Shown here one piece after another: positions 1,866-64,000 of a DNA stretch of 64,000 nt (positions are counted from its first letter, which is position 1; each line of letters begins with the position of its first letter). The notes beneath the pieces were generated by a model, which saw only the letters and a list, made by a program, of their open reading frames with translations, was not told where the DNA came from and did no database searches. Source of the DNA: Eledone cirrhosa. Taxonomy: Eukaryota. The position numbers and the translations under genes were made by a program. The stretch is from positions 4,092,001 through 4,156,000 of the forward strand of contig OZ024759.1 of assembly GCA_964016885.1 (NCBI GenBank). Reading direction: 5' to 3'.

Positions 1866-2003
1866 TTGACTGGCAGCTGTGTCCCCTGTGACCAGGTGAG
1901 CACCTTCCATGGATGCAGATACCATTGTCAGAGTAACATTTGCCATTATTCAGACAGTGGCACTCCTTCACACAGTTGACACCAAACATGCCATGGGCAC
2001 ATC
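1866..2003 (-). CDS. Exon (138 bp, phase 1-1) encoding an EGF-like repeat of a MEGF/PTPR-like receptor
   Basis: Minus strand ttctcag|GA TGT GCC...CAG TCA A|gtaag. Translates GCAHGMFGVNCVKECHCLNNGKCYSDNGICIHGRCSPGHRGHSCQS. Confidence 0.9.
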
Positions 2004-3170: not shown

Positions 3171-3350
3171 GTTTAACATCCATCTTCCACACTAGTCTGG
3201 ATAAGATGGTTTTGTTCCACTTGAGGTGAGATTGGTCTGGAGACTGTGTCTTGCTTGTACAGAACTGTCTTTGGTAGGTTTTTTACCCCTGGAGGCCCTT
3301 CCTAACACCAACCACATTTACAGTGTACATCTTCTGTTTATTACATAATT

Positions 3351-3417
3351 CTGTTATACGTATTTCGAAGATGTCAGAGTGGTTGCATAACTTTCTGACA
3401 TGTTCTCTTCAGACAAG
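3351..3417 (-). ncRNA. Type I hammerhead ribozyme motif
   Basis: Minus strand: ttgt CTGAAGA gaacatgtcaga-[loop]-tctgacatcttc GAAA tacgta TA acag. Intact catalytic core, paired stems I and II, palindromic stem III (ATACGTAT). Confidence 0.75.
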
Positions 3418-3891
3418 TTGAAATTTGTGTTCTTTTATTTTGTTTTTGATATGCTACCAAGGAGTGGGGGTTAGAGTTGTGTTTGCATTCCTGTCCAGTT
3501 GTTATATGGTTTGGATGGCTATTCTAGTAGGCAGATATGAAGCAGGAGGTGCTATTGTTGCTGACATACTAGGGATGCTAAGTAGGTTAAGGTATCAAAT
3601 TACCAGAGGGGTAAGTCATCACCCCACCCCCCGTTCATATATGTTAAAGAATTTGTTCGAATAATCTACTTATTTTTTTGTTTATTTGAACTTTGTTTAT
3701 TTGTTTGAACTACATAGCTATATATCCAGGCTGTGTATTATTAGAGAAGGTGATTCTTGTGTAACTATGTAAGGATGCATTAAATGTATAGATTTAGTCA
3801 TTATGTTCAGCTCTAGGTGGAAGTTAGCATGGAACGTGTTAACTATCTAATCTAAGGAAAGTTTTAGATATTTTATGCATACAAGTATTAA

Positions 3892-4057
3892 CTCTTTAGC
3901 ATTTACATTACTCTGTAATGTATTTTCTCTGTAAAGTCTTTACCTCACATAATAATCTCACATAATATCAAATCCACAAGATTTTGATATTATTTATTTT
4001 GAGAACAATACCTTAACAAAAGTATGAGCAGCCAGTTACGGCTGGTTTGAACAGAAA
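3892..4057 (+). mobile_element. Truncated copy of the TTAA (piggyBac-like) MITE
   Basis: Starts ttaa|ctctttagcatttac; body is homologous to 17324-17544. Confidence 0.7.
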
Positions 4058-4215
4058 AAGCACCACCTACACTCCACTCCCACTATAACCATGACAGCCA
4101 CCTCCACTCCACCACCACCTCCACTCCACTCCCACTATAACCACGACAGCCACCAACACTCCACTCCCACTATAACCATGACAACCACCTACACTCCACC
4201 CCCACCACCACTCAC

Positions 4216-4350
4216 CTTTACAAGTGTTATTCACATCAATATATCCATCTTTACATCCAGTCACACATTTGCCAGTCAATTGATCACATGTCTTTCTGCA
4301 GTTGTTGCACTCTTCTTTACAATTTCTTCCATAGAATCCAGGGAGACATT
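4216..4350 (-). CDS. Exon (135 bp, phase 1-1) encoding an EGF-like repeat
   Basis: ctttctag|AA TGT CTC...TGT AAA G|gtgag. Translates CLPGFYGRNCKEECNNCRKTCDQLTGKCVTGCKDGYIDVNNTCK. Confidence 0.9.
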
Positions 4351-4805: not shown

Positions 4806-7800
4806 CCCTTTAGCATTTACATTACCCTGTATTTACTATTGTATTTTCATGGTAAAGGCTTTACCTCACATAATTATCTCACGTAGCATTTACATTACTC
4901 TGCATTTACTATTGTATTTTAATGGTAAAGGCTTTACCTCACATAATTATCTCACATAACATTTACATTACCCTGTATTTACTATTGTATTTTCATGGTA
5001 AAGGCTTTACCTCACATAATTATCTCATAACATTTACATTACTCTGTATTTACTATTGTATTTTCATGGTAAAGGCTTTACCTCACATAATTATCTCACA
5101 TAACATTTACATTACCCTGTATTTACTATTGTATTTTCATGGTAAAGGTTTTACCTCACATAATTATCTCATAACATTTAAATTACTCTGTATTTACTAT
5201 TGTATTTTCATGGTAAAGGCTTTACCTCACATAATTATCTCACATAACATTTACATTACCCTGTATTTACTATTGTATTTTCATGGTAAAGGCTTTACCT
5301 CACATAATTATCTCATAACATTTACATTACCCTGTATTTACTATTGTATTTTCATGGTAAAGGCTTTACCTCACATAACATTTACATTACTCTGTATTTA
5401 CTATTGTATTTTCATGGTAAAGGCTTTACCTCACATAATTATCTCACATAACATTTACATTACTCTGTATTTACTATTGTATTTTCATGGTAAAGGCTTT
5501 ACCTCACATAATTATCTCATAACATTTATATTACTCTGTATTTACTATTGTATTTTCATGGTAAAGGCTTTACCTCACATAATTATCTCACATAACATTT
5601 ACATTACCCTGTATTTACTATTGTATTTTCATGGTAAAGGCTTTACCTCACATAATTATCTCACATAACATTTACATTACCCTGTATTTACTATTGTATT
5701 TTCATGGTAAAGGCTTTACCTCACATAATTATCTCATAACATTTACATTACTCTGTATTTACTATTGTATTTTCATGGTAAAGGCTTTACCTCACATAAT
5801 TATCTCACATAACATTTACATTACCCTGTATTTACTATTGTATTTTCATGGTAAAGGCTTTACCTCACATAATTATCTCATAACATTTACATTACTCTGT
5901 ATTTACTATTGTATTTTCATGGTAAAGGCTTTACCTCACATAATTATCTCACATAACATTTACATTACCCTGTATTTACTATTGTATTTTCATGGTAAAG
6001 GCTTTACCTCACATAATTATCTCATAACATTTACATTACCCTGTATTTACTATTGTATTTTCATGGTAAAGGCTTTACCTCACATAATTATCTCACATAA
6101 CATTTACATTACTCTGTATTTACTATTGTATTTTCATGGTAAAGGCTTTATCTCACATAACATTTACATTACTCTGTATTTACTATTGTATTTTCATGTT
6201 AAAGGCTTTACCTCACATAATTCTCATAACATTTACATTACTCTGTATTTACTATTGTATTTTCATGGTAAAGGCTTTACCTCACATAATTATCTCACAT
6301 AACATTTACATTACTCTGTATTTACTATTGTATTTTCATGGTAAAGGCTTTACCTCACATAATTATCTCACATAACATTTACATTACTCTGTATTTACTA
6401 TTGTATTTTCATGGTAAAGGCTTTACCTCACATAATTATCTCACGTAACATTTACATTACCCTGTATTTACTATTGTATTTTCATGGTAAAGGCTTTACC
6501 TCACATAATTATCTCACATAACATTTACATTACTCTGTATTTACTATTGTATTTTCATGGTAAAGGCTTTACCTCACATAATATCTCACATAACATTTAC
6601 ATTACCCTGTATTTACTATTGTATTTTCATGGTAAAGGCTTTACCTCACATAATTATCTCACATAACATTTACATTACCCTGTATTTACTATTGTATTTT
6701 CATGGTAAAGGCTTTACCTCACATAACATTTACATTACTCTGTATTTACTATTGTATTTTCATGGTAAAGGCTTTACCTCACATAACATTTACATTACCC
6801 TGTATTTACTATTGTATTTTCATGGTAAAGGCTTTACCTCACATAATATCTCACATAACATTTACATTACTCTGTATTTACTATTGTATTTTCATGGTAA
6901 AGGCTTTACCTCACATAACATTTACATTACTCTCTATTTACTATTGTATTTTCATGGTAAAGGCTTTACCTCACATAATTATCTCACATAACATTTACAT
7001 TACCCTGTATTTACTATTGTATTTTCATGGTAAAGGCTTTACCTCACATAATTATCTCACATAACATTTACATTACTCTGTATTTACTATTGTATTTTCA
7101 TGGTAAAGGCTTTACCTCACATAATATCTCACATAACATTTACATTACCCTGTATTTACTATTGTATTTTCATGGTAAAGGCTTTACCTCACATAATATC
7201 TCACATAATATTTACATTACCCTGTATTTACTATTGTATTTTCATGGTAAAGGCTTTACCTCACATAATATCTCATAACATTTACATTACTCTGTATTTA
7301 CTATTGTATTTTCATGGTAAAGGCTTTACCTCACATAATTATCTCACATAACATTTACATTACCCTGTATTTACTATTGTATTTTCATGGTAAAGGCTTT
7401 ACCTCACATAATATCTCACATAACATTTACATTACTCTGTATTTACTATTGTATTTTCATGGTAAAGGCTTTACCTCACATAATACCTCACATAACATTT
7501 ACATTACTCTCTATTTACTATTGTATTTTCATGGTAAAGGCTTTACCTCACATAATTATCTCACATAACATTTACCTTACTCTGTATTTACTATTGCATT
7601 TTCATGGTAAAGGCTTTACCTCACATAATTATCTCACATAACATTTACATTACTCTGTATTTACTATTGTATTTTCATGGTAAAGGCTTTACCTCACATA
7701 ATTATCTCACATAATATTGAATCTACAAGATTTTAATATTATTTATTTTGAGAAGAAAACCTTAACATCAGTATGAGTGGCCAGTTGCAGCTGATTTGAA

Positions 7801-10844: not shown

Positions 10845-13800
10845 CTACAGGCTGATATAGAGAGAAGACCCATTCACTCTGGCCATTCTCCCTACTTTCA
10901 CCCACCTTTCATAAAACTTGCTGGGGTAGAGCACCTCTCTCTCCATTCTGATCCTTCTTTTAAAATGGTATTTGAAAAAGGGGACCAGTTGTTGGCCGGA
11001 GAGATAGGTGTCTGACCTCAGCCCTTTCAGCCTCGTCCACCATACAACTTCTTTAGCCATGGCTATCACACAGAGAAAAACCGCCTCTCCTTCGTTTTTG
11101 AAAGGGGGAGGCGGTTTGATTGTGACAATGGACTCGGTGGTCAACCGGATTGGTCCCACCTTCGACAGTAGTCGTTCCACATAGCCCCACAGGTCAGCAA
11201 TGCCTGGGCAGTGTACGAATGCGTGCGCAACCATTTCGTCATCATGCACGCATCTCGGACAGATCTTATTCAAAGGATCCCTACCCAAGCTCCCATGCCT
11301 GGAGCTTGTCTCGAACGGGTAGAGCCCCTCGGTAGCACTGCCAAGCCAGGGACTTTTGGATGTTGTCCATCGGTCCAGGGCCAAACGTCCTACCGAACAG
11401 ACTGGCCAGTTCATCTTCCTCCATGCCTAGAGCTTCTCCGAGAGCATCGTCGCACCTGCTGCGTACCAACCCTCTATAGAATGTCGAGGTGGAGTCTCCA
11501 CTGATTGCCGGGTCCGCTTTCCAGAGGGCCGTGAGCGCCTGGGCACATTCAATGTGCCAGTCGCCCACTTTTCTCGGTCTTTGCTTGACCCATGATTGCA
11601 GCTCGGTGAGCGAGACGAGTCTGGGAAAGGCTCGCCTCACAAACGGGGCCCACACCGGTTGACCGGTGAGGAATACCTGGAGGTGCCGTAGCCTTAATGC
11701 GTGTTTACGCATCTGTAGCCATGGCATCCCCAGCCCTCCTTTCGAAGGGTGTTGACAGCAGATGGATCTCCTCCCCAAAGGGGTCCGCTTGTTCCAAAGA
11801 AATTGGAACAGCGCGCACTCCATTTTGGCGAGTCTTTTCACTGGGCAAGGCACGACGGTCAAGCGGTAGTAGATGACGGATGCTATATAAGTATTCGCCA
11901 CCTCCGCTCGACCTTTCAGGGATAGTTTGCACTGGGCCCACACCCTGGCCGTTACCTTGTTCCAGTTTTTCTCCACCTGGAGGTCTGGTCCGAACGAGAC
12001 CCCAAGCAGCTTCACCGGGCCCTCTGTCCAGCGTCCGACGACCTCGTTGGAGGGCATCGGTTTGCCTCTCCATGTTCCGAGTTGCAAACCGACGGACTTG
12101 TCCCGGTTCAGCTTGGCTCCTGTAAACCTTTCATATTCCTCCAGTAAGGTGCCAATTTGCGAGGTTTTCGACACCATTACTGTCACGTCATCGGCGTAGG
12201 CCGACGCCGCTTTCTGCAATCCCGGTTCCAAAGTGATGCCCTGCAACCGCTCCAACTTCCGCAGTAGTGGCTCAAGAGCCAGCACATACAGAAGGGAGGA
12301 GAGAGGGCATCCCTGTCCGATGGATCGCATGATTTGGAACGGCTCCGAGAGGTGGCCGTTCACCTTGACCCTTGAGCAGACGTTGCTGCTGTGCATCGCA
12401 GCAATCCAACCCCTGAAAAAGGGTCCGAAGTCTGCCGCCGTGAGCACCGCATCCAGGTAACGATGGTCAACCCTATCGAAAGCTTTAGATTGATCCAAGT
12501 TGATCAGGGCCCCACTAAAGCCGGGTTCATTCCCTACCCTCTCTATGATGTATCGCATAAGGTGGAGATTGTCGTGAATGGACCTGGACGGGATTGCGCA
12601 TGTCTGCGCTTCTCCCACCAGGTTTCCGACGACAAGCGCCAACCTCTTCGCTAACACCTTGGCCAAAATCTTTAACTCTGTATTTAGCAGAGTTATGGGC
12701 CTGAAGTTACTTATGTCATCCCCCTTGTTCTCACCCTCCTCACCAGCGTAACTACGCCCTTGGTCACAGAACTGGGAATTCTCCCGTTCTGCTGCCAGTT
12801 GCAGTAGACCGCTTCAAGGATATCAGAGAACAAGTCCGGCATCGCTACATATAGCTCGTAAGGTAGACCATCGACACCCGGGGATTTGCGTTTGCCGCTT
12901 TGGCTCAGCGCCGCCCCTATCTCAGCAGCTGAAATCGGCCTTTCGCAGGACTTCGCCTCCGTGTCCGAGAGGCGCGGCAGACCGTCGAGGTATGGATTGA
13001 AATCCATAGTCTCACCCGGCGCGCCGCCCCTCTCGAACAGTCATGCAAAGTGCCACTGAAAGGCCGCACACATCTGCCCAGGTTCAAGGATCACACGCCC
13101 ATCCTGGTCCTTCAAAGACCGAATCGTGGACTTGTTACCACTTTTTGCCTCTGTCACTCGGGCCCAGCTAACAGCTTTGGCTCCCTCATTACCCAGAGCA
13201 CGTATTTTACTCCTGACAACGCAGCCTTCATGCTTCACCTCAAAGAACTGGTCTAAGGCCATTCTTGATGCCAGCACGCTGGCTACATTGCCACTCCTAA
13301 TCGCCTCATCTACTCTATCTACTAATTCCCTTTCCGTCTTGTTCCTATCCCTTGCTAAATCCTGACTAAAACCTATCGATTCTATTCTAATTGCTCTCTT
13401 AAGAGAGATCCACCACCTGTTGTTGACAATTGCCCCTGTCAAACTCTGCTTAACTAACGTGCTAATCCATTTACTGTAAGCTTTGCTTGTCGGTAAGGAC
13501 AAGTTCAGCTTCCAGTAACCGGGTCCCTGTCTATGGGTTCTATCAAGGTTGGCTATGCAGGTCACTAACTTGTGATCCGAATAGTCAACCATGAACATTT
13601 TTGGACAGCTAAATGTGTCCCTATCCTTCTCTCTAACTAGGATCCTATCTAGGTACGACCTAGAGCCGCTGCGATTGGTCCACGTCCATAGTGGTACAGT
13701 CGGAAAATCTAGTCGATATCTATCGGCCAGGTCAAATCGGCCAATTAACCGTTTGAGGCTTTTACACCCCTCTGTATTGGCACATGCCCCTACATAGTCC

Positions 13801-14249
13801 CAACGTGCATCCAGGATACCATTCCAGTCCCCCACTAAAAGCAAGGAGCTGGACGTTCCCAGAAAAGTTTCCAGATGTTGGAAGTATTCCGGCCGTGCTG
13901 CCCAAAAAGGGGCGTACGCAGCAATTAGTCTAAGGGCTCCACTTTCACTACTGCCGACTTCTAAAACCACCAGTCGACCCTCCGGGTCCAGGTGCACCTT
14001 CTGTATGGTGAGGCTCAGGTATTTTCGCAGCAGAACGACAACTCCACCCCCACCCCCCGGTTGACAGAGAGATGCGAAGATCTCAAAGTCGTCGAAGAGG
14101 GGCGCCAGTTGGCGCTCGCTGCTGATCCTGGACTCGCAAATAGCCATTACATCCATTCTATGCGACCTGAGATCGTTTAAAAGTTTGCCTTGTTTCCAAG
14201 ACAGTCCCAGGCCGCGTACATTCAGACACCCAACTCTTATATCAGCCAT
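10845..14249 (-). pseudogene. Tx1-like ORF2 (APE endonuclease + reverse transcriptase + zf-RVT) with stops and frameshifts
   Basis: Motifs CLNVRGL, ICESR, VGDWN, LDRIL, YSDHK; KSPGVDGLPYE; LDQSKAFDRVDH, QGCPLS, AYADD; CPRC...HAFVHC. Split over ORFs 13041-14249, 12711-13007, 11281-12666 and 10845-11414. Confidence 0.9.
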
Positions 14250-14254
14250 GTTGG

Positions 14255-16018
14255 TTAAAAGAGGAAGGACCTACCTGTTCGGCTCCTGAGGAGCAGGTTG
14301 CACAATATCCATGGGCGTATTGGAGGGATTGTTTGGTGGGGTGTTGTTTTGTGGTGGGGTGGGGTGGGGGTGTTTGGTGAGGTGTGGGTGGGGAAACGTT
14401 TCAAGAGGACGCGGTTATAGGGTCGAGTACATGTTTTCCCCACGTCCTCAGGAAAGTTCTCTCTTAGTTTTGCATAGGTGTCCATTGGGAGTCTTATCAT
14501 TTTTAAATGCGGTTTGTTGGCCGCGCTTGCAAAGAATTGCCCTTCAGTTTCCACCGAAGGGTCTTTGTGTATTGTTTTTACTAGTTCTCTGTTATTTGTG
14601 TTAATGTATGTATACTGTTTTATTTGTGTTGTGTTTGTTTGTTGTTCTTGTGTGTGCTTGCGTTTTGTTGTATGTGTTATGTTTTGGGGCGGGGCGGATT
14701 TTGTTTGTTCTGTTTGTTTTGTTTTTGTTGGTGGTTGTGTGTTTCTTTCATTTATGTTCGAGTGGTGCTTTCTTTTTTTCCTTTTTACAGGTTGGAAGGG
14801 TCCCCCCCTCTTCGTCACTAGGTGCTATTTCAGCTGGGTCCTCGTCCGTGCTGTCGGGTAGTGGTGTATTTTGGGGTTTTGTTGTGTTTGTGTGTGTTTT
14901 TGGAGTTGTTTTGGGTGGGGCCGTGTCTTGTGTTATTTTTCCGTGTTGTTTTTTGTTGTTGTTGTGGTGGTGGTAGTGGTGGTGGTGGCGGTGGTAGTGT
15001 GTGGGGTGTAGGCAAAAGAGCCTTTTTTTTGTCAATTGAGGGCAGGCAGCCCTTAGATGACCCCTGCTTGAACAGTAGTAACATATGGGCCTCCTACCCT
15101 GGGCTGAAATGTATATAAATGTTTCTCCATCGAGGGACACCCTCTGTGGTATTCTAGCTATTCGTTCTGGTCTCATTTGGACCAGAACCTCCACGCTCAA
15201 ACCGCAGAAAACGTCTGTGGTGACTTCTCCTACTGAAAGGATTCCGTCCTCGTCTTCTAAAAATCCTGTTAGTACCCAGGAAATGCATTAATTTGGCCGG
15301 ATTCCGGAGACTCTTATTTTCTGCGTTCTTTTCCCCAAATATGTGGGGAGAAATGTGTGTAGCTTGGAAACAATTGGCGACACAGAGTATTTCCTGGCCG
15401 TCAATTGATCCTTCATTAGCACCGTTATATTCCCATAGAGTGGCCCTTTTTGTATGAACGATATATCACTCCACACACTTTTTAGGACCAGCTCAATTTC
15501 TTTTGGGATAATTGAGCTGGTTTCCTTGTTATGTTGGAAATTGTTCTGAAAGATATCGTTCTTAGTGTCGTGTCTCTTTTGATTTCTTGTGGGGAGGTGA
15601 TTGTGAAGTCTCCTCCTTCTTTGAAAGTTACATACTGTTTTGCTTCCTTCATCTTTTCTCTCAGAGTTGTAATGTCCAGTTGCTTGCAGGTCTGTGTTTT
15701 CCGGACCGCCTGTGCAAAGGAGGCACCAGTAGTGGGTTCGCTTTGTTTGGTGTTATCGTTATTTTTTCCTTGGTTGGTGTTGTGACTATTGCTGTTGTTG
15801 ATCATGCTGTTATTGTCATTGTTGTTTTTGTCTGCGTTTATGTGACTTTCTGGGTTTTCACCCATTTTTACAAATTTTTCTTTTAATTCCGTGTTCCATG
15901 TTTCTTTATCAGAAGTGAGGAGGGAAGACTTAGAGCCTTGTGCTTCTAGCTTCTCTGTATCACCTTTCTTAGGGGGCGTGGCTTTCTTGTTAGGATGAGA
16001 TGTGAAAATTCCGTCCAT
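14255..16018 (-). pseudogene. Tx1-like ORF1 (gag-like, CCHC zinc knuckle), frameshifted
   Basis: ASFAQAV motif, GRRPICYYCSSRGHLRAACP knuckle and FQPVKRKKRK basic patch, spread over several frames. Confidence 0.75.
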
Positions 16019-32257: not shown

Positions 32258-32450
32258 TATCATGGCTTAGTGGTTAAAGCATTGGGCTTGCAATCTAAAG
32301 GTTGTGAGTTCGATTCTCGGACAGGGTGTTGTGTTGTGTCCTTGAGCAAGACACTTTATTTCGCGTTACTCCAGTTTACTCAGCTGTAGAAATGAGTTGT
32401 GATGTCACTGGTGCCAAGCTATATCAGTCATAACCTTTCTCTTGGACATA
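32258..32450 (+). mobile_element. Family-B CORE-like SINE
   Basis: tggcttagtggttaaagc head, gagttcgattc B-box and tgtgtccttgagcaagacactt core. Confidence 0.8.
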
Positions 32451-43728: not shown

Positions 43729-43793
43729 TATTTTATCTGATGAAAGAGCACCAAGATTGACTTGGTCGCCCTTGAAATATATATAATAAAATA
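43729..43793 (+). ncRNA. Type I hammerhead ribozyme motif
   Basis: tattttat CTGATGA aagagcaccaag attga cttggtcgccctt GAAA tatata TA ataaaata: 8-bp stem I, long stem II, palindromic stem III. Confidence 0.75.
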
Positions 43794-44160
43794 AATATGC
43801 AAAAGTTCTATTTAAATTGTTGGGATACAACAAGCAAATATGTTTATAACTGATATAAAGCACTCAACAAGTATTTGGAATAAACATACGATATTAACAA
43901 TCCTTTTGTATTTTATGTACTCAATTATATTATGTACTATATTGATTTATACTTCTCTCTATATGTGAGTATATATGTATATGTGTATATTGACATACAT
44001 GTACATGCGTTCTATGCATTTTTATGAATATATTGACATACATGTACATGCGTTCTATGCATTTTTATGAATATATGTCTGTCTGTATGTATGCATGCGT
44101 GACGCGAATCTACCAATTGGCCGAGGATGCACACACATGTATATATATGTATATGTAAGA

Positions 44161-46703
44161 TCTGGAAGCTGAAAGTCCCCTCAACCAGTAACAGATTTAA
44201 AGATATTTTACTCAACGCCTACGACAGTAAAGAAGAACAGATAGAGACATTTAACGTAGAAGAGAACTGGGAGTTCCTAAAAAATAACTTACTAGAGGCG
44301 ACGGATGAGGTTTGTGGCTGGAGTAAGACCTCAAGCAGGAGGAGAGTGACTTGGTGGTGGAACAATAAGGTAGATGAAGCAGTCAAGGCCAAGAGACAGG
44401 CATGGAAAGAATGGAAGAACGGGGGGAGCAGGGTACATTACATAGAGACCAAGAGGGAAGCTAGGCGACAAGTATACTTAGCTAGGAGGGAAGCAGAGGA
44501 TAGAAAATTCAAGCATGTTTTACAACGTGAGGACCAGAAACAGGAGGTATTCAAGATTGCGAGGCAGTGTGTCAGAGATAGTTGTGATGTCATTGGAGAG
44601 AAGTGTATCCGGAATGATAAAGGTGAGCTTGCCCTCACAAGTGCTGAGAAGAAAGATGCATGGAAGAGTCATTATGATAGATTACTAAATGAGGAGAATG
44701 CATGGGAAGAAGAGACCCTACCCCACGTAGACCCTATAGAGGGACCAGCAGTACAAGTCAGCGGCAGCGTAGTAAGTAAGGCAATCAGAGATATGAAGAT
44801 AGGGAAGGCAACCGGTCCATCGGGTATAGCTGCCGAGATGCTGAAGGCATCTGGGTCTGTAGGTCACACTATAACCACACGTATCATTAACCAGGTAATA
44901 CTAGAGGGGGCCATACCAAAAGATTGGTGCAGTAGCATCATTGTCAACTGCTACAAAGGTAAAGGCGATGCACTAGATAGAGGAAACTATAGAGGTATAA
45001 AGTTGATGGACCAGGTCATGAAAGTAACAGAAAGAGTTATAGCACAGCTGATTAGGGACCGGGTGAATATAGACGAGATGCAATTTGGGTTTGTACCAGG
45101 GAAAGGCACCACTGATGCGCTCTTCCTTGTGAGGCAATTACAGGAAAAGTACCTAGCTAAAAGTAAGCCACTCTACTTGGCATTTGTCGACCTTGAGAAA
45201 GCCTTTGACAGAGTTCCACGTGCAGTAATCTGGTGGGCTCTTAGAAAACTAGGAGTAGATGAATGGCTTGTGAAAGCGGTACAAGCCATGTATAGGGGAG
45301 CAGTCAGCAAAGTTAGGATTGGCAATGAGTATAGCGAGGAATTTAGCGTACAGGTTGGGGTCCACCAGGGCTCTTAGCCCTCTCCTGTTCATCATAGTCC
45401 TGCAGGCAATAACGGAGGAGTTTAAGACCGGATGCCCATGGGAACTCCTGTATGCTGATGACCTCGCACTCATAGCTGAATCTATGGTAGAACTAGAGAA
45501 TAAATTCCAAACCTGGAAGCAGGGACTAGAGAGAAAGGGCCTCAAAGTCAACATGACAAAGACTAAGGTCCTTATAAGTAGACGAGAAAACAGAACCCAG
45601 ATCCCCTCAGGGAAATGGCCTTGCTCAGTATGTAGGAAAGGTGTAGGTAGGAACTCCATTCTTTGCCCCAAATGCAAACAATGGGTACACAAGAGATGTA
45701 GCGGGATCTCAGGAAGCTTAATTAAGAATGTAGGATTCACATGCAGCAGCTGTGCTGAAACAGCAAGCAAACAGCCACAGGAAACAAGTACCACCAATCT
45801 CTGGGAGGGCCCTGTAGAAACAGTAGACAGCTTCTGCTACCTAGGTGACCGAATTAGCAACGGAGGTGGGTGCTCAGAAAGTACAATAACTAGGGTAAGA
45901 ACGGGATGGAAGAAGTTTAGGGAACTACTACCACTGCTAGCTGCAAAAGGCTTCTCCCTCAGAATGAAAGGCAGACTGTATGATGCGTGTATCCGAACAG
46001 CGATGTTGCATGGTAGTGAGACCTGGGCGCTGAAGGTGGAAGACTTACGTAGATTAGAGAGAAACGAAGCCTGCATGCTCCGATGGATGTGTAACAGTAA
46101 TATACGTGAACGACAAAGCATAAATGAATTGAGAGAGAGACTGAGCATAAGAGGAATCAAATGCTGCGTGCAGGAGAGGCGGTTACGCTGGTATGGACAT
46201 GTGATGCGTATGAAGGATGACAGCTGCATAAAAAGGTGCAGAGCACTAGAAGTTGATGGAAACCGCGGAGTGGGGAGACCCAAGATGACTTGGGATGAGG
46301 TGATAAAAGCCGACCTTACCCAACTACACCTCTCAAAGTCAATGACACACGACCGTGACTTCTGGCGTCACGCAGTAATACAGGGTACCCGACCTCCCAT
46401 GGGTACATGCTGAAGCATATAAACAATATGCCCCCCCCCCCCCACCGCAAGGTGGTCGTGGAGGTGCCACGGCAAAAAAGCACCCAGCCCACACTGTAAA
46501 GTGGACGTGTAGGCGCCACGAAAAAGCACCCAGCACTCACTGTAAATGAGGTTGGTGTTAGGAAGGGCATCCAGCTGTAGAAATCAAGCCAGATCAGTTC
46601 CTGTATGAGCAAGGCATGGTCAGCCGACCAGACACTGCCCACAACAGGACAACCCGTCTAACCCATGCTAGCGTGGAAGAACGGACGTAAAACGGTGATG
46701 ATG
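44161..46703 (+). mobile_element. 5'-truncated RTE LINE, relatively young (one frameshift at ~45370)
   Basis: ORFs 44127-45377 and 45319-46413 carry RT motifs; (GAT)n tail; TSD atgtaaga at 44153-44160 and 46704-46711. Confidence 0.95.
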
Positions 46704-47487: not shown

Positions 47488-47552
47488 TATTTTGTCTGAT
47501 GAAAGCATACCATAATTTAACATGGTATCCTCGAAATATGTATAATAAAATA
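47488..47552 (+). ncRNA. Type I hammerhead ribozyme motif
   Basis: tattttgt CTGATGA aagcataccat aatttaac atggtatcctc GAAA tatgta TA ataaaata. The first stem II pair is mismatched (A-C). Confidence 0.65.
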
Positions 47553-55848: not shown

Positions 55849-58800
55849 CTAGCTGACGTACCTAGCTTCGCCCGGGTAAACAGATGATAAGAGAAGACAG
55901 GTAAAAGAGAAAATGTCTGTATTGGATGTTTGTCTGGTTACAGTGTGAGGCGAGTCCGTGTTGTCTGTGTGATACAAAAAAACAGTAAAAATAATCTTCC
56001 AGATATACCAGATTCTTCGTCGTGCGGTTTGTGCATAGTATATGAACAATTCTAGGTGCTCCCACCTAGAATAGTGACCTCTAGGAGATGGTTCCTCTTC
56101 TGCCTGACTGGAAAACGTGTATCATTGCATAGACGTGGTTGTTCCACGTTTCTCAAAAGGATGATGGAAGTTCCAATCTTTTATATTATATGTAGATATA
56201 GATATAGATAATTAATAAAAAAGATGTCCGTCAATGTAAAGAAGGTCCCTATTTACTTGAAATGGTTTATACAAATGCCAAATTAATATGGATATGGATA
56301 ACATGCTTATCTATAAGTGGTCAGCTATAATAATAAAACAACAAATTATATGACACAAAAATTTATTCAGTAATTTCCAGGCTCTTAGCCACTGAGTAAT
56401 AGACAGTCAATATTGCCCAGAGTTCAACTCGGGGAGGTGGCCTGGTTTGAACTCAAAATGGCGGATCCTTCTACTTCGAAAATAGAATCGTTTTTCAATA
56501 TTACTCTAGCCCTGGCCGGCCATAGGCACCAAACTTTTTGCCAGACTCAGCATATGATGAGGTTTTATTACCACTGCAATCAGAAGCGATAAATTTGAAG
56601 GCAATTTCTACCAATACTTGTTGGTTTTTATTGCTCATTATCGACAATAAATGACATTGGACATAAATGATAACTCTGCCAAAGCTCACAATACAAATGA
56701 AAGGAAACCAATGTCCGAATCATATACGTCGCTTATTGATAGCTTTAAAGATATGCATACATCAGCTCAAAGCTTCATTATAGACAATATTTAGGTTTGT
56801 TACTCTGTTAGTGGTATCAATTGCAAATTTTATACCATCAGGATCGCACACTCGAGATGCAGCAACATAGAGTTGCCCATGGCTGAATGCTGGATCATTC
56901 AAGTAGACACCGACTCGCTTGAAAGTCTGTCCCTGTGCCTTGTTGACAGTCATGGAGAAGGCCAAATTGACGGGAAACTGTCTCCTTTGCCAAATAAATG
57001 GCAGCAGATCTTCACTTGGTCTCAGCATGATCCTCGGAATGAGAACCGATTCCTCTCTGCCTGGGAGTTTAGCTTCTAAATCTCTTCCGTTAATCAATCT
57101 CTCAACAATCAATCTGGTACCATTGCAAAGACCCATTTTATGATTGATATTTCTAAGCAATATAATCGGCAAACCCTTTTTCAACCTCAAAATATGTGGG
57201 GGAAATCCGGGTATTTGAAGTGAATTCAGATACTCAGTCGGAACATCCATACTGTTCTGCTGATTAGGCTCCATTGCATACGCACTGACGGTCAACCATT
57301 CCTCTCCAGGAAACATTCCGGCTACTTGTGAATTTATTTCATCGACCGTTGTATTCGTATGAGTTAGAATAACATGTTCCGATATCCAGGAGATATTCTG
57401 CCAAAAAGCATTCAAATTAGGGAACACCCAGTCAATCAAGCCTTGGCGGTCCAGTGGCATGACCAAATGGTCTGGGATTCATACAGTCTGATTATCACCA
57501 ACGTGTGGCAATTCATCGTTTCCCAACTGCATCAACCATCGGCCGTATGTCTCAGCCTCTTCGTTTTGCCCGAACATAGGAAGTCGCATATTATCGTGTA
57601 ATCGCAAAACTCTGAAATGGCCCCACAACGGGGACTTTTTCAGACATGCATCGACAATTTGCGCTCTTTGAGCATTCCTAACAATTGGTAGCACCTGTCT
57701 GAAATCACCACCAACAACGATAGTCTTACCACTGAATGGCAGGTCACTACCGCAGATATCTCTCAAAGTTCTGTCCAATGCCTCCAGCAAATATCTGTGT
57801 GCCATTGGAGCCTCGTCCCAAATAATCAGAGACGTATTGCGTATAAGGCCCGCGAGTTCACTTTGTCCTGTAATATTACAGACACTCAACTCATCTGGAG
57901 CCAATGGAGCCTTGAAGCATGAGTGGAAGGTCCTTCCACCACTCAGCAAAGTGGCAGCGATGCCCCTGGTGGGCACAGGGAGAGCAATCTTCCTCTGAGC
58001 TCTGACTGCCGATAACATAGTGTTGAAACAGAATGTCTTTCCGGTGCCTCCTGGAACATCTATGAAAGCACAAAGTTGCTCATTAGTGGAAATCGAGTGG
58101 AGAGCGCCATCGACCAATTCTCTGTGAGATTGGGTCAACATTGGCATACGTTCATCCACAATACGTTGCTGTTCCAGTGGATCAAACTGGAATAGTTCCC
58201 TCCGATCGAGTGGCAACCGTCTAAGCTGCAATCTCATGTTCAATGCTAAGACACGTTGCCGCATTTCTTCATCAGGAATTGGCAAATTGAAATCTGTTAA
58301 ACATTTCAAATGAACTTCGAGCAGTTGCTCAATATTGAGCAAAACAATAGCCTTCATCAAATGTTCATCATAGACCTGAAGATGGTGCCTAAAATCATCA
58401 GCCATAATTCCCCAATGGCGTTCAAATAACTCTCTTGGATCGGCAGGATTGCAGAATCCTAGAATCGTGACAAACAACTGCCATATTCGAGCTGGCATCT
58501 GTGTTGTTCCTGCAGCTTCCATGGCGTTATTCCATTCAGCGTCATCCTGAAGGAGTCCCAGATGCTGACACACAGCCTGGTATCTTTTATATTCCACGCC
58601 ATTGATTGTTTTCAAATCAGCGAAGCTCTGTTTACCTCTCGAAAAATCACTATGCAACAGAATTCGGAGATAAAACACATCACCAGATGCTGGATGGACA
58701 TTACAAACCCGTCCAATAGTCATGAATCTCAACTTTTGTTTTCTATCATTCCATTTCTTTCCCTTCTTATCCCACGTATAGTGCGAAGGGAAATCGCAGT

Positions 58801-61690
58801 AGAGTTGCTTTTGATCCGGGTTCAAAGCATGTTCCCTATTATGCTTGAACCACTCAGTCAATTCCGTCTTAGGAGGTGGTGCGTTAGCAATTCTTTCTAT
58901 ACCTCTTCTACTGTCCTTAAAACAGACCATTTGCCTATTCTCTAAGTGAACCGTCAGTTTCTGAACGCTGTGTTTGCGTTCATTGAGATCAAAATCGAAC
59001 AATCTCCAGCAAGCTTCGCTAGATCCAATCGAGCGAACATCCTGGAACCTGCCAACTTCATCTCCTTGGTTCGCTTCCTCATTCCTGACATTCATCATTG
59101 CCCCATCATGACCTTTGTAAACATACTTGAATAGATATTTGCAAGCTTTCACTGAGCTACAAATTTCCACATTAATATGACAACGATATTTCATAATCAA
59201 ATATGGATTGTATGGCACAACCCATTGATTTGTAACCTGTCGACCGTTTACATTTTCGACCAAACCGCCATCGGCAGGCGACCGTCTTCTGTATGAGGGA
59301 TGAGCATCCCCATCATTCCAGGAAGTGTTCCTGACAAAAGATTTCGGAAAGTGCTTACTGCATTGGCCATTTTTCATGCAAGGCGCTTTCCGATTTGCCA
59401 CTCCGCATTGGTTGTGCACCATTGACTTTGCCACCAAGTTGCATAGTGCCTCATTCTCCGGCAGTTCAGCACACACAATGCTGTCGACATCCTCAGCACA
59501 TCACAATTTGCAATCTCTATGTAAAATGATCAGCAAATGTGCATGTGGCAATCCTCTTTTTTGGAATTCAATTACATATGTAAAAGCAACTATACCTCCA
59601 AAGATTCCCTCTTTTTCCACATCATCCATTATCTTTTTCAGATATCCTTTGAATACTCTTGCCACAATATCAGGACGGTCCTTTGGCTGTTGTCCTGGCA
59701 AAAGTGCATCCTTAATATCAGTCCATTCAGGATTGCATGTAACAGTTATAAACAAATCTGGCTTTCCAAACTTTCTGACAATAGCCATTGCATCCTGATA
59801 GCGAATGTTCATATATCTCGGGCCGCCGATGAACGACGATGGCAAAATGATGCGTCGACCAATTTGCTTGTAATTGGCATCATCGGCTGTTATCGCATCC
59901 TGTATATTATTATACAATTCAGCTCTGATATGTTGCTGATGTGTAGCTATATAATTTAGCCTTTGATTTTCGATCTTTGCGTATGCTATACAACAGTATT
60001 CCTGGAACAATCTGCTGGCTTGAAATAGCGCATTTCTCTGTTGATTCCTCTCGTTCAAATGGAACGCGTAAAAGTCGCGAATCGAATTATTGTGTCTATT
60101 GCCACCTCCCTGTTGATGCTGATTCTCATGATCATCTAAATGAACAGACATGTTCCATCCATTTTCACCTTTTGGGAATAAAAGAACATAATGCAATGGA
60201 TGGTATGTCCTATTTGACTCATTGATAGTGTTGAGACCACCATCTCTGCGATTGAGGGCGATATCTCTCGATCCAGGCTTATCGTCCATCAACACAGCAA
60301 CTTCACGAAATCCTTCGGGGGCATTATATCGCCGTTCGTGTTGATTCCTTGGCACTGCGTCAGCCTTAATCACCAATGTTTGTTGCTGAACATTCTGCAG
60401 TTCAGCCACCAACATGAAATCCATAACATAAGGATTACACTGTCTAAGCCATGATTGCAAATCATGGATCAAATCACTTAACCTTTGCCGTTCAAGTTCA
60501 GTTATATTTCCCGGCAACTTCATCCAACCGATCCTGATATCCTCCTCCGATTCACTATAATCTGGATTGTTAACGTAAATTTGAGCGAATCAAGGCCTCT
60601 CTCCTGGGGTAACTTCTAAATTATCGATACAATGATACAAACGGCATTGAATGACGACATTCGGTTGCCATGCTCCACTCTCAAACATCTCACTAACTCT
60701 CTGCGATGCTAAAGCTAATAAATTGTTAATTTGCCGCGAATATTTGCGCAGTAATCTACCTCGGTCTCATTGATCACCCCACATACTTAGTATTTTAAAC
60801 TCCGGTGACTCCCCATCATCCGGCATTCGCAAAGGTTCTAGTTGAACTGCTCCTTTGTGACAGCACATTGTGGTCCACGTCTTTTCGTGCCACCAAAGCA
60901 ATGCTCCACAATGTGGAGACCCTGGTCGTCCACCAATCTGACAGTGACACGGTTGCCATGATCCATTTTTAATATCATTCGTTCGCCTCTTTACTGGAAT
61001 GAGGAGCACTTTGCGACACATTCCCTGAACTTCTGTATTGCGCTGGCGCTGTTCAGCCAGCTCCTCTTCATCCACCGGAGCACGCCATTGCTGCTGAATT
61101 CTGGCCACCTGCTGATGATGCTCAGCCAGTTCGTTTTTCAACCATCGCAGCACTCCGTCGCCGCTGTAGTTCACTGTTTGATAAAGTCGAATTGCTTTTC
61201 TTATCAGTATTCATTTGGAGCAATTGTAAAAAAAAATGACACAATAATAAATATAAAAGATGTCCGTCAATGTAAAGAAATGTCCCTATTTACTCCCTTC
61301 ACAACTCTGTGTATGACAGACAGGCACACAGACAGATAAACTGCGCGGCGATTGTGGAACGTCACACGCATACACGCATGGAAACGCGCACACGCACACA
61401 AACTTACACACGCACACACTCACACATGTTGATAGTTTTTACTTTTTGTGGAACACTGCACGCACGCACACACACATAAACATACGCGCACATACATACA
61501 CACGCATACATGTTAATAGTTATTGAACACAGTGTTCACACTCTCCCCTCTCACTCCCTCATTGGCATTATGCATATTAATTTCAGTTTGGCGTCGTTGG
61601 GGTGGGCGGAGTCCTTTGAAACCTATGAACCAATGATAATCGAGAATTGTGACACACGGAATACTGACGTTCTTCAAATTAATAAATAGA
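55849..61690 (-). mobile_element. Near full-length Helitron
   Basis: a|TCtatttattaat 5' end at 61690; acccgggcgaagctaggtacgtcagCTAG 3' end at 55849; RepHel coding region inside. Confidence 0.93.
56762..61174 (-). pseudogene. Helitron Rep/PIF1 helicase (RepHel) with several stops and frameshifts
   Basis: GKPDLFITVTCNPEW, YVIEFQKRGLPHAHLLI (HUH), KYLFKYVYKGHD (Y2), PGGTGKTF, IIWDEAPMAH, GGDFRQVLP, RRQFPV..TVNKAQGQT, FSHGQLYVAASRV. Confidence 0.93.
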
Positions 61691-62482: not shown

Positions 62483-64000
62483 TCACCTTGACCGACCAGT
62501 CTGTCGGGCGTCCATTCGACGCCGCTGGTCACAGCACGCCGTCCATTCCTCTCCGTATTGTGCTTTCCTCATCCATGTAGTCCCAATCATATTCCTAAAA
62601 TTATCTGCCACCTTCATGGAGGCCTTCCGAGTGGTCGCTTCCACTCGCACGGGTACCACTCCGCAACTGCGCAGGTCCAGTGATTATCGGTGAACCGGGC
62701 GGCGTGTCCAGCCCATCTGAACTTGCTGCGTATATATTGCGCGATGACGTCCCTCACACCGGACTTCTGTCTAATGACTTCGCTCCTGATGTGCTCTCTC
62801 AACAAGATTCCTAGCATTGATCTCTCCATGGCTCTTTGAGCCGTTACCAGCCTCTGCTCTTCTCTCTTCGTTGTAGCCCAAGATTCACTGCCATATAACA
62901 TTGCAGGTAAAACTGTGCTATTGAAGGGGTTGGCGTGGGTGGTCTTGTCCAACCTCCCCTTGAGCACATCCCTTATGCCGCTGAACGCCTTCCATCCCTT
63001 ACTCTCTGCGAGATCAGCCTCTCAATGTATTGGCGCATGTTCACTTCTTGTCCTAGGTAGACGTATTCCTCCACCTCCTCTATTTCATCACCACCAACCA
63101 CCATTCGACCTGTTGGTACGTTGTCGGACCGCATGAAGTTCGTTTTCATGCTGTTCATCTTGAGGCCTACTGCAGAGCTTTTGATGTCGAGCTCCGTCAG
63201 CATGGTCTGAAGCCGATCCGTGGTTTCAGCGATGAGTACGATGTCATCAGCGAAACGGAGGTGGGTAAGTATCTCCCCATTGATGGTGACACCGCCTTGC
63301 CAGTCAATGCCTCTGATGATCTGCTCGAGACACGCGGTGAAAACTTTTGGAGAGATCGTATCTCCTTGCTTCACTCCCTTCTCGACCGGCACTCGTACGG
63401 GTGATGACAGCAGAGCTGTGTCGGTGGTGCATCCGGAATTCGCCTCCTTGAGCAGTTGAACGTATTCTGCCTCGACTCCTTGCCTCTGCAGCGAGTTCAG
63501 CACTGCGTTGATTTCGACGCTGTCGAAGGCCTTCTTGTAGTCTACGAACGCGACGCAAAGAGGCATCTTGTACTCTTTTGCTTGCTCAAGCAGTTGTGTC
63601 AGAGTAAATATGTGGTCCATCGTGCTGTAGTTCTTCCGGAAGCCGGCTTGCTCTTTCGGTTGCGGTTCGTCCAGATGATGTGATAACCTGTTCAGGATTA
63701 TCTTCGTGAACAGCTTGTACACGTGAGACAGCAGGAATATGGGTCAGTAGTTCTTCAGATCTTGTCTATCGCCCTTCTTTTATAGCAGGATGGTATTCGA
63801 CTCTTTCCACTGCGAGGGTATTCTTCCCTCGTCCAGATCGTGTGTGAATCGCTCGGCGAGGATTTTCCAGAGCTGTTCTCCGCCTGACTTCAACACCTCC
63901 GATGTTATTCCGTCTTTCCCTGGCGCCTTTCCGCTTTTCATTACACCGACGGCTCTTTCCACCTCACCGACAAGGATGGGTGGCACATTTTCTTCCTGTT
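62483..64000 (-). mobile_element. GC-rich RTE-clade LINE (second family), running off the right edge
   Basis: KAPGKDG, EQAGFRK..STMDHI, FVDYKKAFDSV, KQGDTISP, LRFADD, EYVYLG, VLPAMLYGSESW, FRWAGHAAR, RPLGRPP. Confidence 0.92.

Follow-up and report, generated by a model that had tools for sequence, protein, structure and literature searches.

Small hammerhead ribozymes have been described in association with Penelope-like retroelements, and the published accounts are compared here as far as their accessible parts allow. The min-hammerheads of Cervera and De la Peña (2014; PMC4209133) are of type I, with CUGANGA and GAAA segments, a long helix II, a short helix I and a palindromic helix III, and occupy the 3' repeat of truncated elements that occur as dispersed single copies and as inverted pairs 100–700 bp apart. 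Single molecules are reported to be inactive and dimers weak and slow (PMC4209133), and a review gives the same picture of molecules inactive singly and weak as dimers (PMC6765202). Lünse, Weinberg and Breaker (2017, as cited in PMC6765202) described small hammerheads that are likewise associated with Penelope elements, have a diminished stem III and cleave as dimers. In the Hydra clade of Craig et al. (2021; PMC8557442), stem III mostly has 3–4 bp and a loop of 1–3 nt. Weak monomer activity is on record for axolotl hammerheads (PMC7229834). The hammerhead of an Anolis element cleaves only with its protein, its cleavage is dispensable for insertion in vitro and, in the accessible part of that report, RNA-seq showed no read ends at its site (PMC11167929). 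A palindromic stem III, weak activity and a need to dimerise are thus already known for these ribozymes. Type I hammerheads also lie in amniote introns, where the ultraconserved C10orf118 type (PMC3088659) is a single-locus motif, conserved across species and active with a pseudoknot.

Here we describe a hammerhead in an intron of Eledone cirrhosa, within a window of 64,000 nucleotides (the whole stretch of DNA analysed; contig OZ024759.1, positions 4,092,001 to 4,156,000). Direct reading of the minus strand from 3416 to 3351 gives a minimal type I hammerhead, and the stems, CUGAAGA, GAAA, AUA and the C3402·C3370 mismatch of the original prediction were all read again as described (Table 1). 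The core CUGANGA...GAAA...NUH is accompanied by stems I and II. Stem II runs G-C, A-U, A-U, C·C and then eight further pairs, with a loop of 15 nt. It opens with the canonical G10.1-C11.1 pair (G3405-C3367), a pair that varies in sister families, being A·C in the motif at 47.5 kb and A-U in that at 43.7 kb of the window. The motif resembles the min-hammerheads in the architecture and setting listed above, the dimeric variants in its Penelope association, its diminished stem III and a predicted cleavage as a dimer, and the C10orf118 type in being of type I and intronic. It differs from the latter, however, in being a repeat relic with an unstable stem III, and from the Hydra-clade hammerheads in that stem III is a loop-less 8-nt palindrome. 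The extra base between positions 9 and 10.1 of the >80% consensus of PMC4209133 is absent from this copy, in which G10.1 directly follows A9; since the base is also missing in several Hydra-clade rows of PMC8557442, it is typical and not defining.

Table 1. Positions of the hammerheads, the carrier element and the flanking host exons in the window.
Feature	Position	Strand	Basis or remark
Host exon, EGF-like repeat, upstream of motif	4216..4350	-	AG/GT ends
5'-truncated Hydra-clade-like Penelope-like element	3323..3891	-	last endonuclease codons, 3' region, hammerhead, AATAAA
Stem I	3416-3413 (UUGU) / 3354-3351 (ACAG)	-	sequence
Core CUGAAGA	3412-3406	-	sequence
Stem II, 12 positions	3405-3394 / 3378-3367	-	sequence
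Mismatch at stem II position 4 (10.4·11.4)	C3402·C3370	-	sequence; conserved genome-wide
GAAA	3366-3363	-	sequence
UACGUA, then AUA triplet	ending at A3355	-	sequence
8-nt palindrome AUACGUAU, dimer stem III	3363-3356	-	sequence and folding energies
A17	3355	-	predicted cleavage at 3355/3354
Host exon, EGF-like repeat, downstream of motif	1866..2003	-	AG/GT ends; PF24887 below cut-off
Hammerhead of a second Penelope-like family	43733..43789	+	position 4 of this copy is A43747·C43770
Hammerhead of a third family	47492..47548	+	C47506·C47529 at position 4

The position-4 mismatches that had been pointed out in the two plus-strand motifs were confirmed. With its A·C, the motif at 43.7 kb stands apart from its family, which has C·C in nine of 12 distinct sequence contexts among the matches listed. 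Self-complementarity of the six nucleotides after GAAA, claimed for all three motifs, holds on the whole, but the segment at 47.5 kb, UAUGUA, is self-complementary only if a U·G pair is allowed. Two points had been overlooked: all three motifs are the 3' ends of Penelope-like retroelements, and the palindrome is a known dimerisation feature of such ribozymes. An Rfam search of the window gave no hammerhead match at E ≤ 5. Twenty nucleotides past the cut site, a segment at 3329-3336 on the minus strand (GAAGAUGU) is able to pair with the second strand of stem II and so place a G opposite the mismatched C; segments of this type occur in most copies of the motif's family, and in that family only. 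A role of C·C as a switch with such a downstream, G-containing strand was rejected, as GA(A/G)GAUGU is confined to this family among the 99 motifs scanned. Also rejected was a one-base register shift, with an extra base after A9, that would remove the mismatch: it disrupts the pairing of the intronic copy as well as that of the GGUC, GGAC and UAGC families.

By its sequence, the intronic motif is the 3'-end hammerhead of a decayed Penelope-like element. From 3891 to 3323 this element comprises the final endonuclease codons (NTCMHKISKTFLR), followed by a 3' region of about 450 nt, the hammerhead and AATAAA. The repeat is delimited by dispersed copies at 77–85% identity, with a short inserted repeat before it and a different repeat beyond 3323. 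The true parent frame came to light when upstream sequence of copy L143 was used as the query, and translates as CNCRIPANCP...IVYECKI...YIG...R...H...CDLC..E...NKRSDIFNICMH. In family copies (L164, L171, L180 and L183) a CxCX5C, CxxC, CxH endonuclease lies 380–560 nt upstream of the same hammerhead, which places the motif at the 3' end. The CxCX5C linker, with CxxC and CxH around conserved E and N, was found in L183, of the motif's own family, and in L147 and L148. DKT is in frame in L149, and a DKT string also occurs in L183, in an unconfirmed frame. The CCHH motif is absent, and a single cysteine stands between the GIY- and YIG-like motifs. An N-terminal RWK was found in frame in none of four loci, whose N-termini are broken or missing, and is present in homologue P0003. 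These features appear to match the Hydra clade as characterised in the accessible part of PMC8557442, and an assignment to Neptune/Nematis was dropped because the motifs fit Hydra.

In sister families, long RT-endonuclease frames lie between inverted motifs 2.6–4.2 kb apart (six of the seven loci read), one of them with DKT. Inverted truncated pairs also occur in these families, and sister copies have (TA)n ends shortly after the motif. The third family, that of the 47.5 kb motif, is represented with an upstream RT-endonuclease frame by copy L149. The sole homologue named to species among the 120 matches listed is from Argonauta hians, at 39% identity, and Pfam gave no match for five element proteins. 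Non-LTR retrozymes consist of tandem repeats of 200–400 nt with a hammerhead in each; here a single motif lies in a 570-nt fragment with no tandem copy. An RT-endonuclease frame beside copy L029 was rejected as the parent, only L029 itself crossing the junction at query base 871 (one of 51 matches); it belongs to another Penelope family with its own hammerhead-like end.

The original prediction, drawn from three copies, was that the position-4 mismatch marks a conserved structural subtype, and it called for a genome-wide alignment of the core. The genome bears this out far beyond three copies. With stem II unconstrained, the core pattern has 82,323 exact matches in 3.0 Gb, or about one motif per 36 kb, compared with 171 for a reversed control, and 73,284 of these (89%) have C at both position-4 sites, compared with one in the control; the motif is therefore not due to chance. 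Because the pattern fixes the TAYRTA palindrome and AUA, these counts are silent on the generality of those two features. The copy number, about 82,000, compares with about 4,000 and 9,000 in the genomes highlighted in PMC4209133. C·C is present in 92 of the first 100 unconstrained matches listed. Neither side is C in 453 matches (control 94), and 385 (0.5%; control 7) have C-G, scattered over many families as single changes would be; roughly 8,200 matches lie outside these three classes. C·C motifs with other stem III starts showed no excess (1,483 versus 1,556 in the control), though a few real families are among the rows.

Position-4 C·C is conserved across families, with covarying neighbouring pairs. 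When 96 distinct motifs from 231 of the genome's own loci were grouped into 16 clusters (a sample that excludes loci picked for being non-C·C and includes some drawn from C·C-constrained lists), position 4 was C·C in 14, C·U in one and C-G in one. Positions 2, 3, 5 and 6 have three to six pair types each across the same clusters, and stem I varies too, with pairing mostly kept. In the family of the intronic motif, C·C is found in 24 of 28 aligned rows, two of which represent one place; six candidates had no spanning match and eight duplicates were skipped. A short-stem family of 2,536 copies keeps a mismatch, with 67 C·A, 29 C·C, three T·C and one T-A among the 100 matches listed. Position 4 is paired in a small family (L278, L284 and L305) and several C-G copies stand as inverted pairs, so that C·C is not absolutely required, and RNA of such C-G copies may have been copied at least once. 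We also noted a further repeated hammerhead family (for example, G000:C1:47986324 and 77783675) with GGUCACAG...GCGAC and a AGAGCUUU-like stem III, in which A9 is followed by the extra base and stem II is patterned differently.

Outside this genome, metagenomes scanned with 32 aligned element proteins gave 77 loci, 48 of them showing a hammerhead. Among 46 distinct endonuclease-linked motifs position 4 is paired in 42 and unpaired in four, and none has C·C. Counted by eye, neither the 26 Hydra rows in File S2 of PMC8557442 (Hydra-1_oBim included) nor the 56 rows in Fig. S3 of PMC4209133 show C·C, whereas it is fixed here. Two rows of the latter figure have another mismatch at position 4, C·A in S. 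purpuratus 1 and U·U in Clonorchis 2, which pass without remark in the accessible part of that paper. Since C·C is absent from the 46 metagenomic motifs and the 26 published Hydra rows, it looks like a lineage-specific variant. The feature is apparently new to the literature, in which we found, going by article listings and the passages cited here, no description of position-4 C·C in Penelope hammerheads, the Lünse 2017 alignments lying outside the comparison.

Folding calculations bear on what the intronic copy could do by itself. The palindrome AUACGUAU has an energy of +4.7 kcal/mol as a hairpin and -6.5 kcal/mol as a duplex, which makes it an unstable stem III within one molecule, and the A15.1-U16.1 pairing probability in the monomer is 0.003 (0.0001–0.006 over all eight motifs folded); a partner would therefore be needed. 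The full monomer fold has a probability of about 1e-6, and stems I to III reach at most 0.012 when 270 or 500 nt of context are folded. In the homodimer, stems II and III form correctly and stem I slips into the core (in-register P = 0.08). A strict scan of 214 kb around the window, which may miss decayed copies, found four motifs: the intronic one, a same-strand paralogue 131 kb off and two on the plus strand. On the other side, a same-strand paralogue lies 114 kb away.

The motif was said to lie in sense orientation between two host exons, and this is so: the flanking exons are on the same strand with AG/GT ends. Exons 4350-4216 and 2003-1866 join in frame across a GT-AG intron into two Cys-rich EGF-like repeats. 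Upstream are an EGF-like frame at 20089-19922 and, at 19317-18967, a weak match of F5/8 type that does not reach the cut-off (E = 0.0034), and about 18 more EGF-like exons follow within 60 kb; a protein search for a name for the host gene gave no match. The region is part of a segmental duplication: counting the window itself, there are 19 places with 97–100% matches to the motif region, most of them about 100–170 kb apart on one contig. Over these 19 paralogues, two of 51 motif sites vary compared with 45 of 1,437 flank sites (3.1%; p = 0.67, at low power). G12 is changed to A in two of the 19 copies, and the palindrome is broken in one. A second insertion class in the duplicated region (L022-L030; nine loci fetched, five inspected) stops at window position 3421, 9 nt before the core, and keeps more upstream endonuclease sequence than the window does. 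Compared with the column majority of its family, the window copy differs at one of 51 motif sites and 81 of 432 upstream sites, and other copies differ on average at 9.8% and 14.8%. Its low motif divergence may reflect ascertainment, though selection after insertion would give the same result.

Two runs, X1 and X4, provided contigs of unrecorded kind. In X4, one contig matches precisely the exon 4216-4350 and continues at either end in other sequence, which hints at spliced RNA; exon 1866-2003 has no cover among the contigs of this run. Another X4 contig, of 730 nt, runs over the cut site from 3323 to 4005, so that uncut molecules exist; partial cutting would be compatible with it.

We consider it probable (roughly 0.7) that the intronic motif is the 3'-end hammerhead of a dead Hydra-clade-like element, of a kind that would cut as a dimer in element RNA and in which C·C would be a selected contact, and that the partnerless copy in the intron does not cut the host transcript to any meaningful extent. 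In the element's own RNA, two motifs would be expected to pair through the 8-nt palindrome and then to cut after AUA, with a tandem element transcript perhaps supplying the partner. By analogy with the published systems, we infer dimer cleavage and a weak, protein-assisted activity. In a canonical hammerhead with a 4-bp stem II, loop 2 meets stem I (PMC4209133, PMC3088659). With three pairs between it and the core, the C·C is close to the start of that loop and may therefore supply the contact between stems I and II or a site for the RT-endonuclease protein; a selected docking or protein-binding site thus seems its likely role. The original prediction that the copy could cut the pre-mRNA finds no support, since a partner would be needed, the same strand offers none nearby and nothing in the paralogues points to upkeep. 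Because stem III is predicted barely to form, same-strand copies are 114–131 kb off, the paralogues lose core bases at the background rate and a contig spans the site, cutting of the host pre-mRNA appears unlikely, and the copy is most likely an ordinary relic and passenger.

The constancy of C·C could also go back to the founder of a single retroelement radiation, as an inherited and nearly neutral trait that is merely tolerated, which we regard as improbable. A single ancestor is possible, and the endonucleases of this genome cluster apart from 26 metagenomic ones, with support of only 76–89; as the families are related, shared descent would add to the constancy, though the trees are weak. 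Relatives elsewhere work with a paired position 4, and the one small family here pairs it too. However, the carrier families have only 33–54% protein identity to L149, and while adjacent pairs changed repeatedly the 5' C stayed and its partner moved, at the level of families, only to A or U.

The intronic copy might instead act alone on the pre-mRNA, or be kept by the host for that purpose. The sense orientation, the intact core, the single difference from the family majority and the weak monomer activity in axolotl (PMC7229834) would be in keeping with this, but the near absence of the monomer fold, the slipped stem I favoured even by the homodimer, the paralogues that have lost G12 or the palindrome and the nine-locus class that ends short of the core make it very unlikely. 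Cutting in trans, in which RNA of the sister families, whose copies are far more numerous, would serve as the enzyme half, pair through the shared palindrome and stem I arm and cleave the pre-mRNA after A3355, is a doubtful prospect. Co-folding of a motif of the 47.5 kb type, or of L149, with the intronic copy gives a trans stem III at P = 0.89 and an in-register trans stem I at P = 0.57–0.58, with the enzyme stem II formed, and the palindrome class is common to >80,000 loci. Yet co-folding forces the strands together and ignores concentration, the contact amounts to only about 12–15 mostly A-U pairs, both trans stems exceed 0.5 for only two of the seven other motifs tried, published dimers are slow (PMC4209133), and the 730-nt contig bridges the site, partial cutting again being compatible with it. 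We would likewise give low odds to a combined scheme, in which tertiary or protein docking has passed from loop 2 to an internal loop formed by the C·C, and element RNA forms a pool of half-ribozymes that cuts in trans the host pre-mRNAs with sense copies, that of this intron among them; such a pool is conceivable given that the palindrome is common to tens of thousands of copies and their stem I arms are compatible.

On the preferred reading, of a relic whose C·C was a selected contact, a mismatch fixed in >73,000 copies of many families and absent from close relatives outside this genome offers a one-base handle on the contacts of these ribozymes, and bears on why Penelope hammerheads are slow, dimer-dependent and protein-assisted. 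With about one motif per 36 kb, a bias between sense and antisense copies in introns is testable at high power, given annotation.

Several other features of the locus may be recorded. The EGF-repeat gene lies in a tandem segmental duplication at about 3.48–5.30 Mb of G000:C20 (the window and L349-L363), in units of about 100–170 kb, with further copies on C16, C22, C23 and C27; two units were read, with about 20 EGF-like exons apiece. In both of them, two of these exons appear frameshifted or truncated (G000:C20:4089337 and 4220520; 4081913 and 4213150, minus strand), including the one that directly follows 2003-1866; skipping of these exons or decay of the gene copies may account for this. 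Long tandem arrays occupy introns of the gene at 4820-7650 (units of about 72 nt) and 1-1830 (about 51 nt), and the former resembles the short repeat found at about 3890-4085. At 56765-60589 on the minus strand lie Helitron-like Rep/helicase frames (PF14214, PF05970), and LINE-type RT or endonuclease frames at 44103-46410 (plus strand, between the two plus-strand hammerheads), 10848-14270 and 62617-63998 (both minus strand). A tRNA-like match at 32263-32320 on the plus strand (33.9 bits, above the Rfam gathering score; model positions 8-63) is possibly the head of a SINE.
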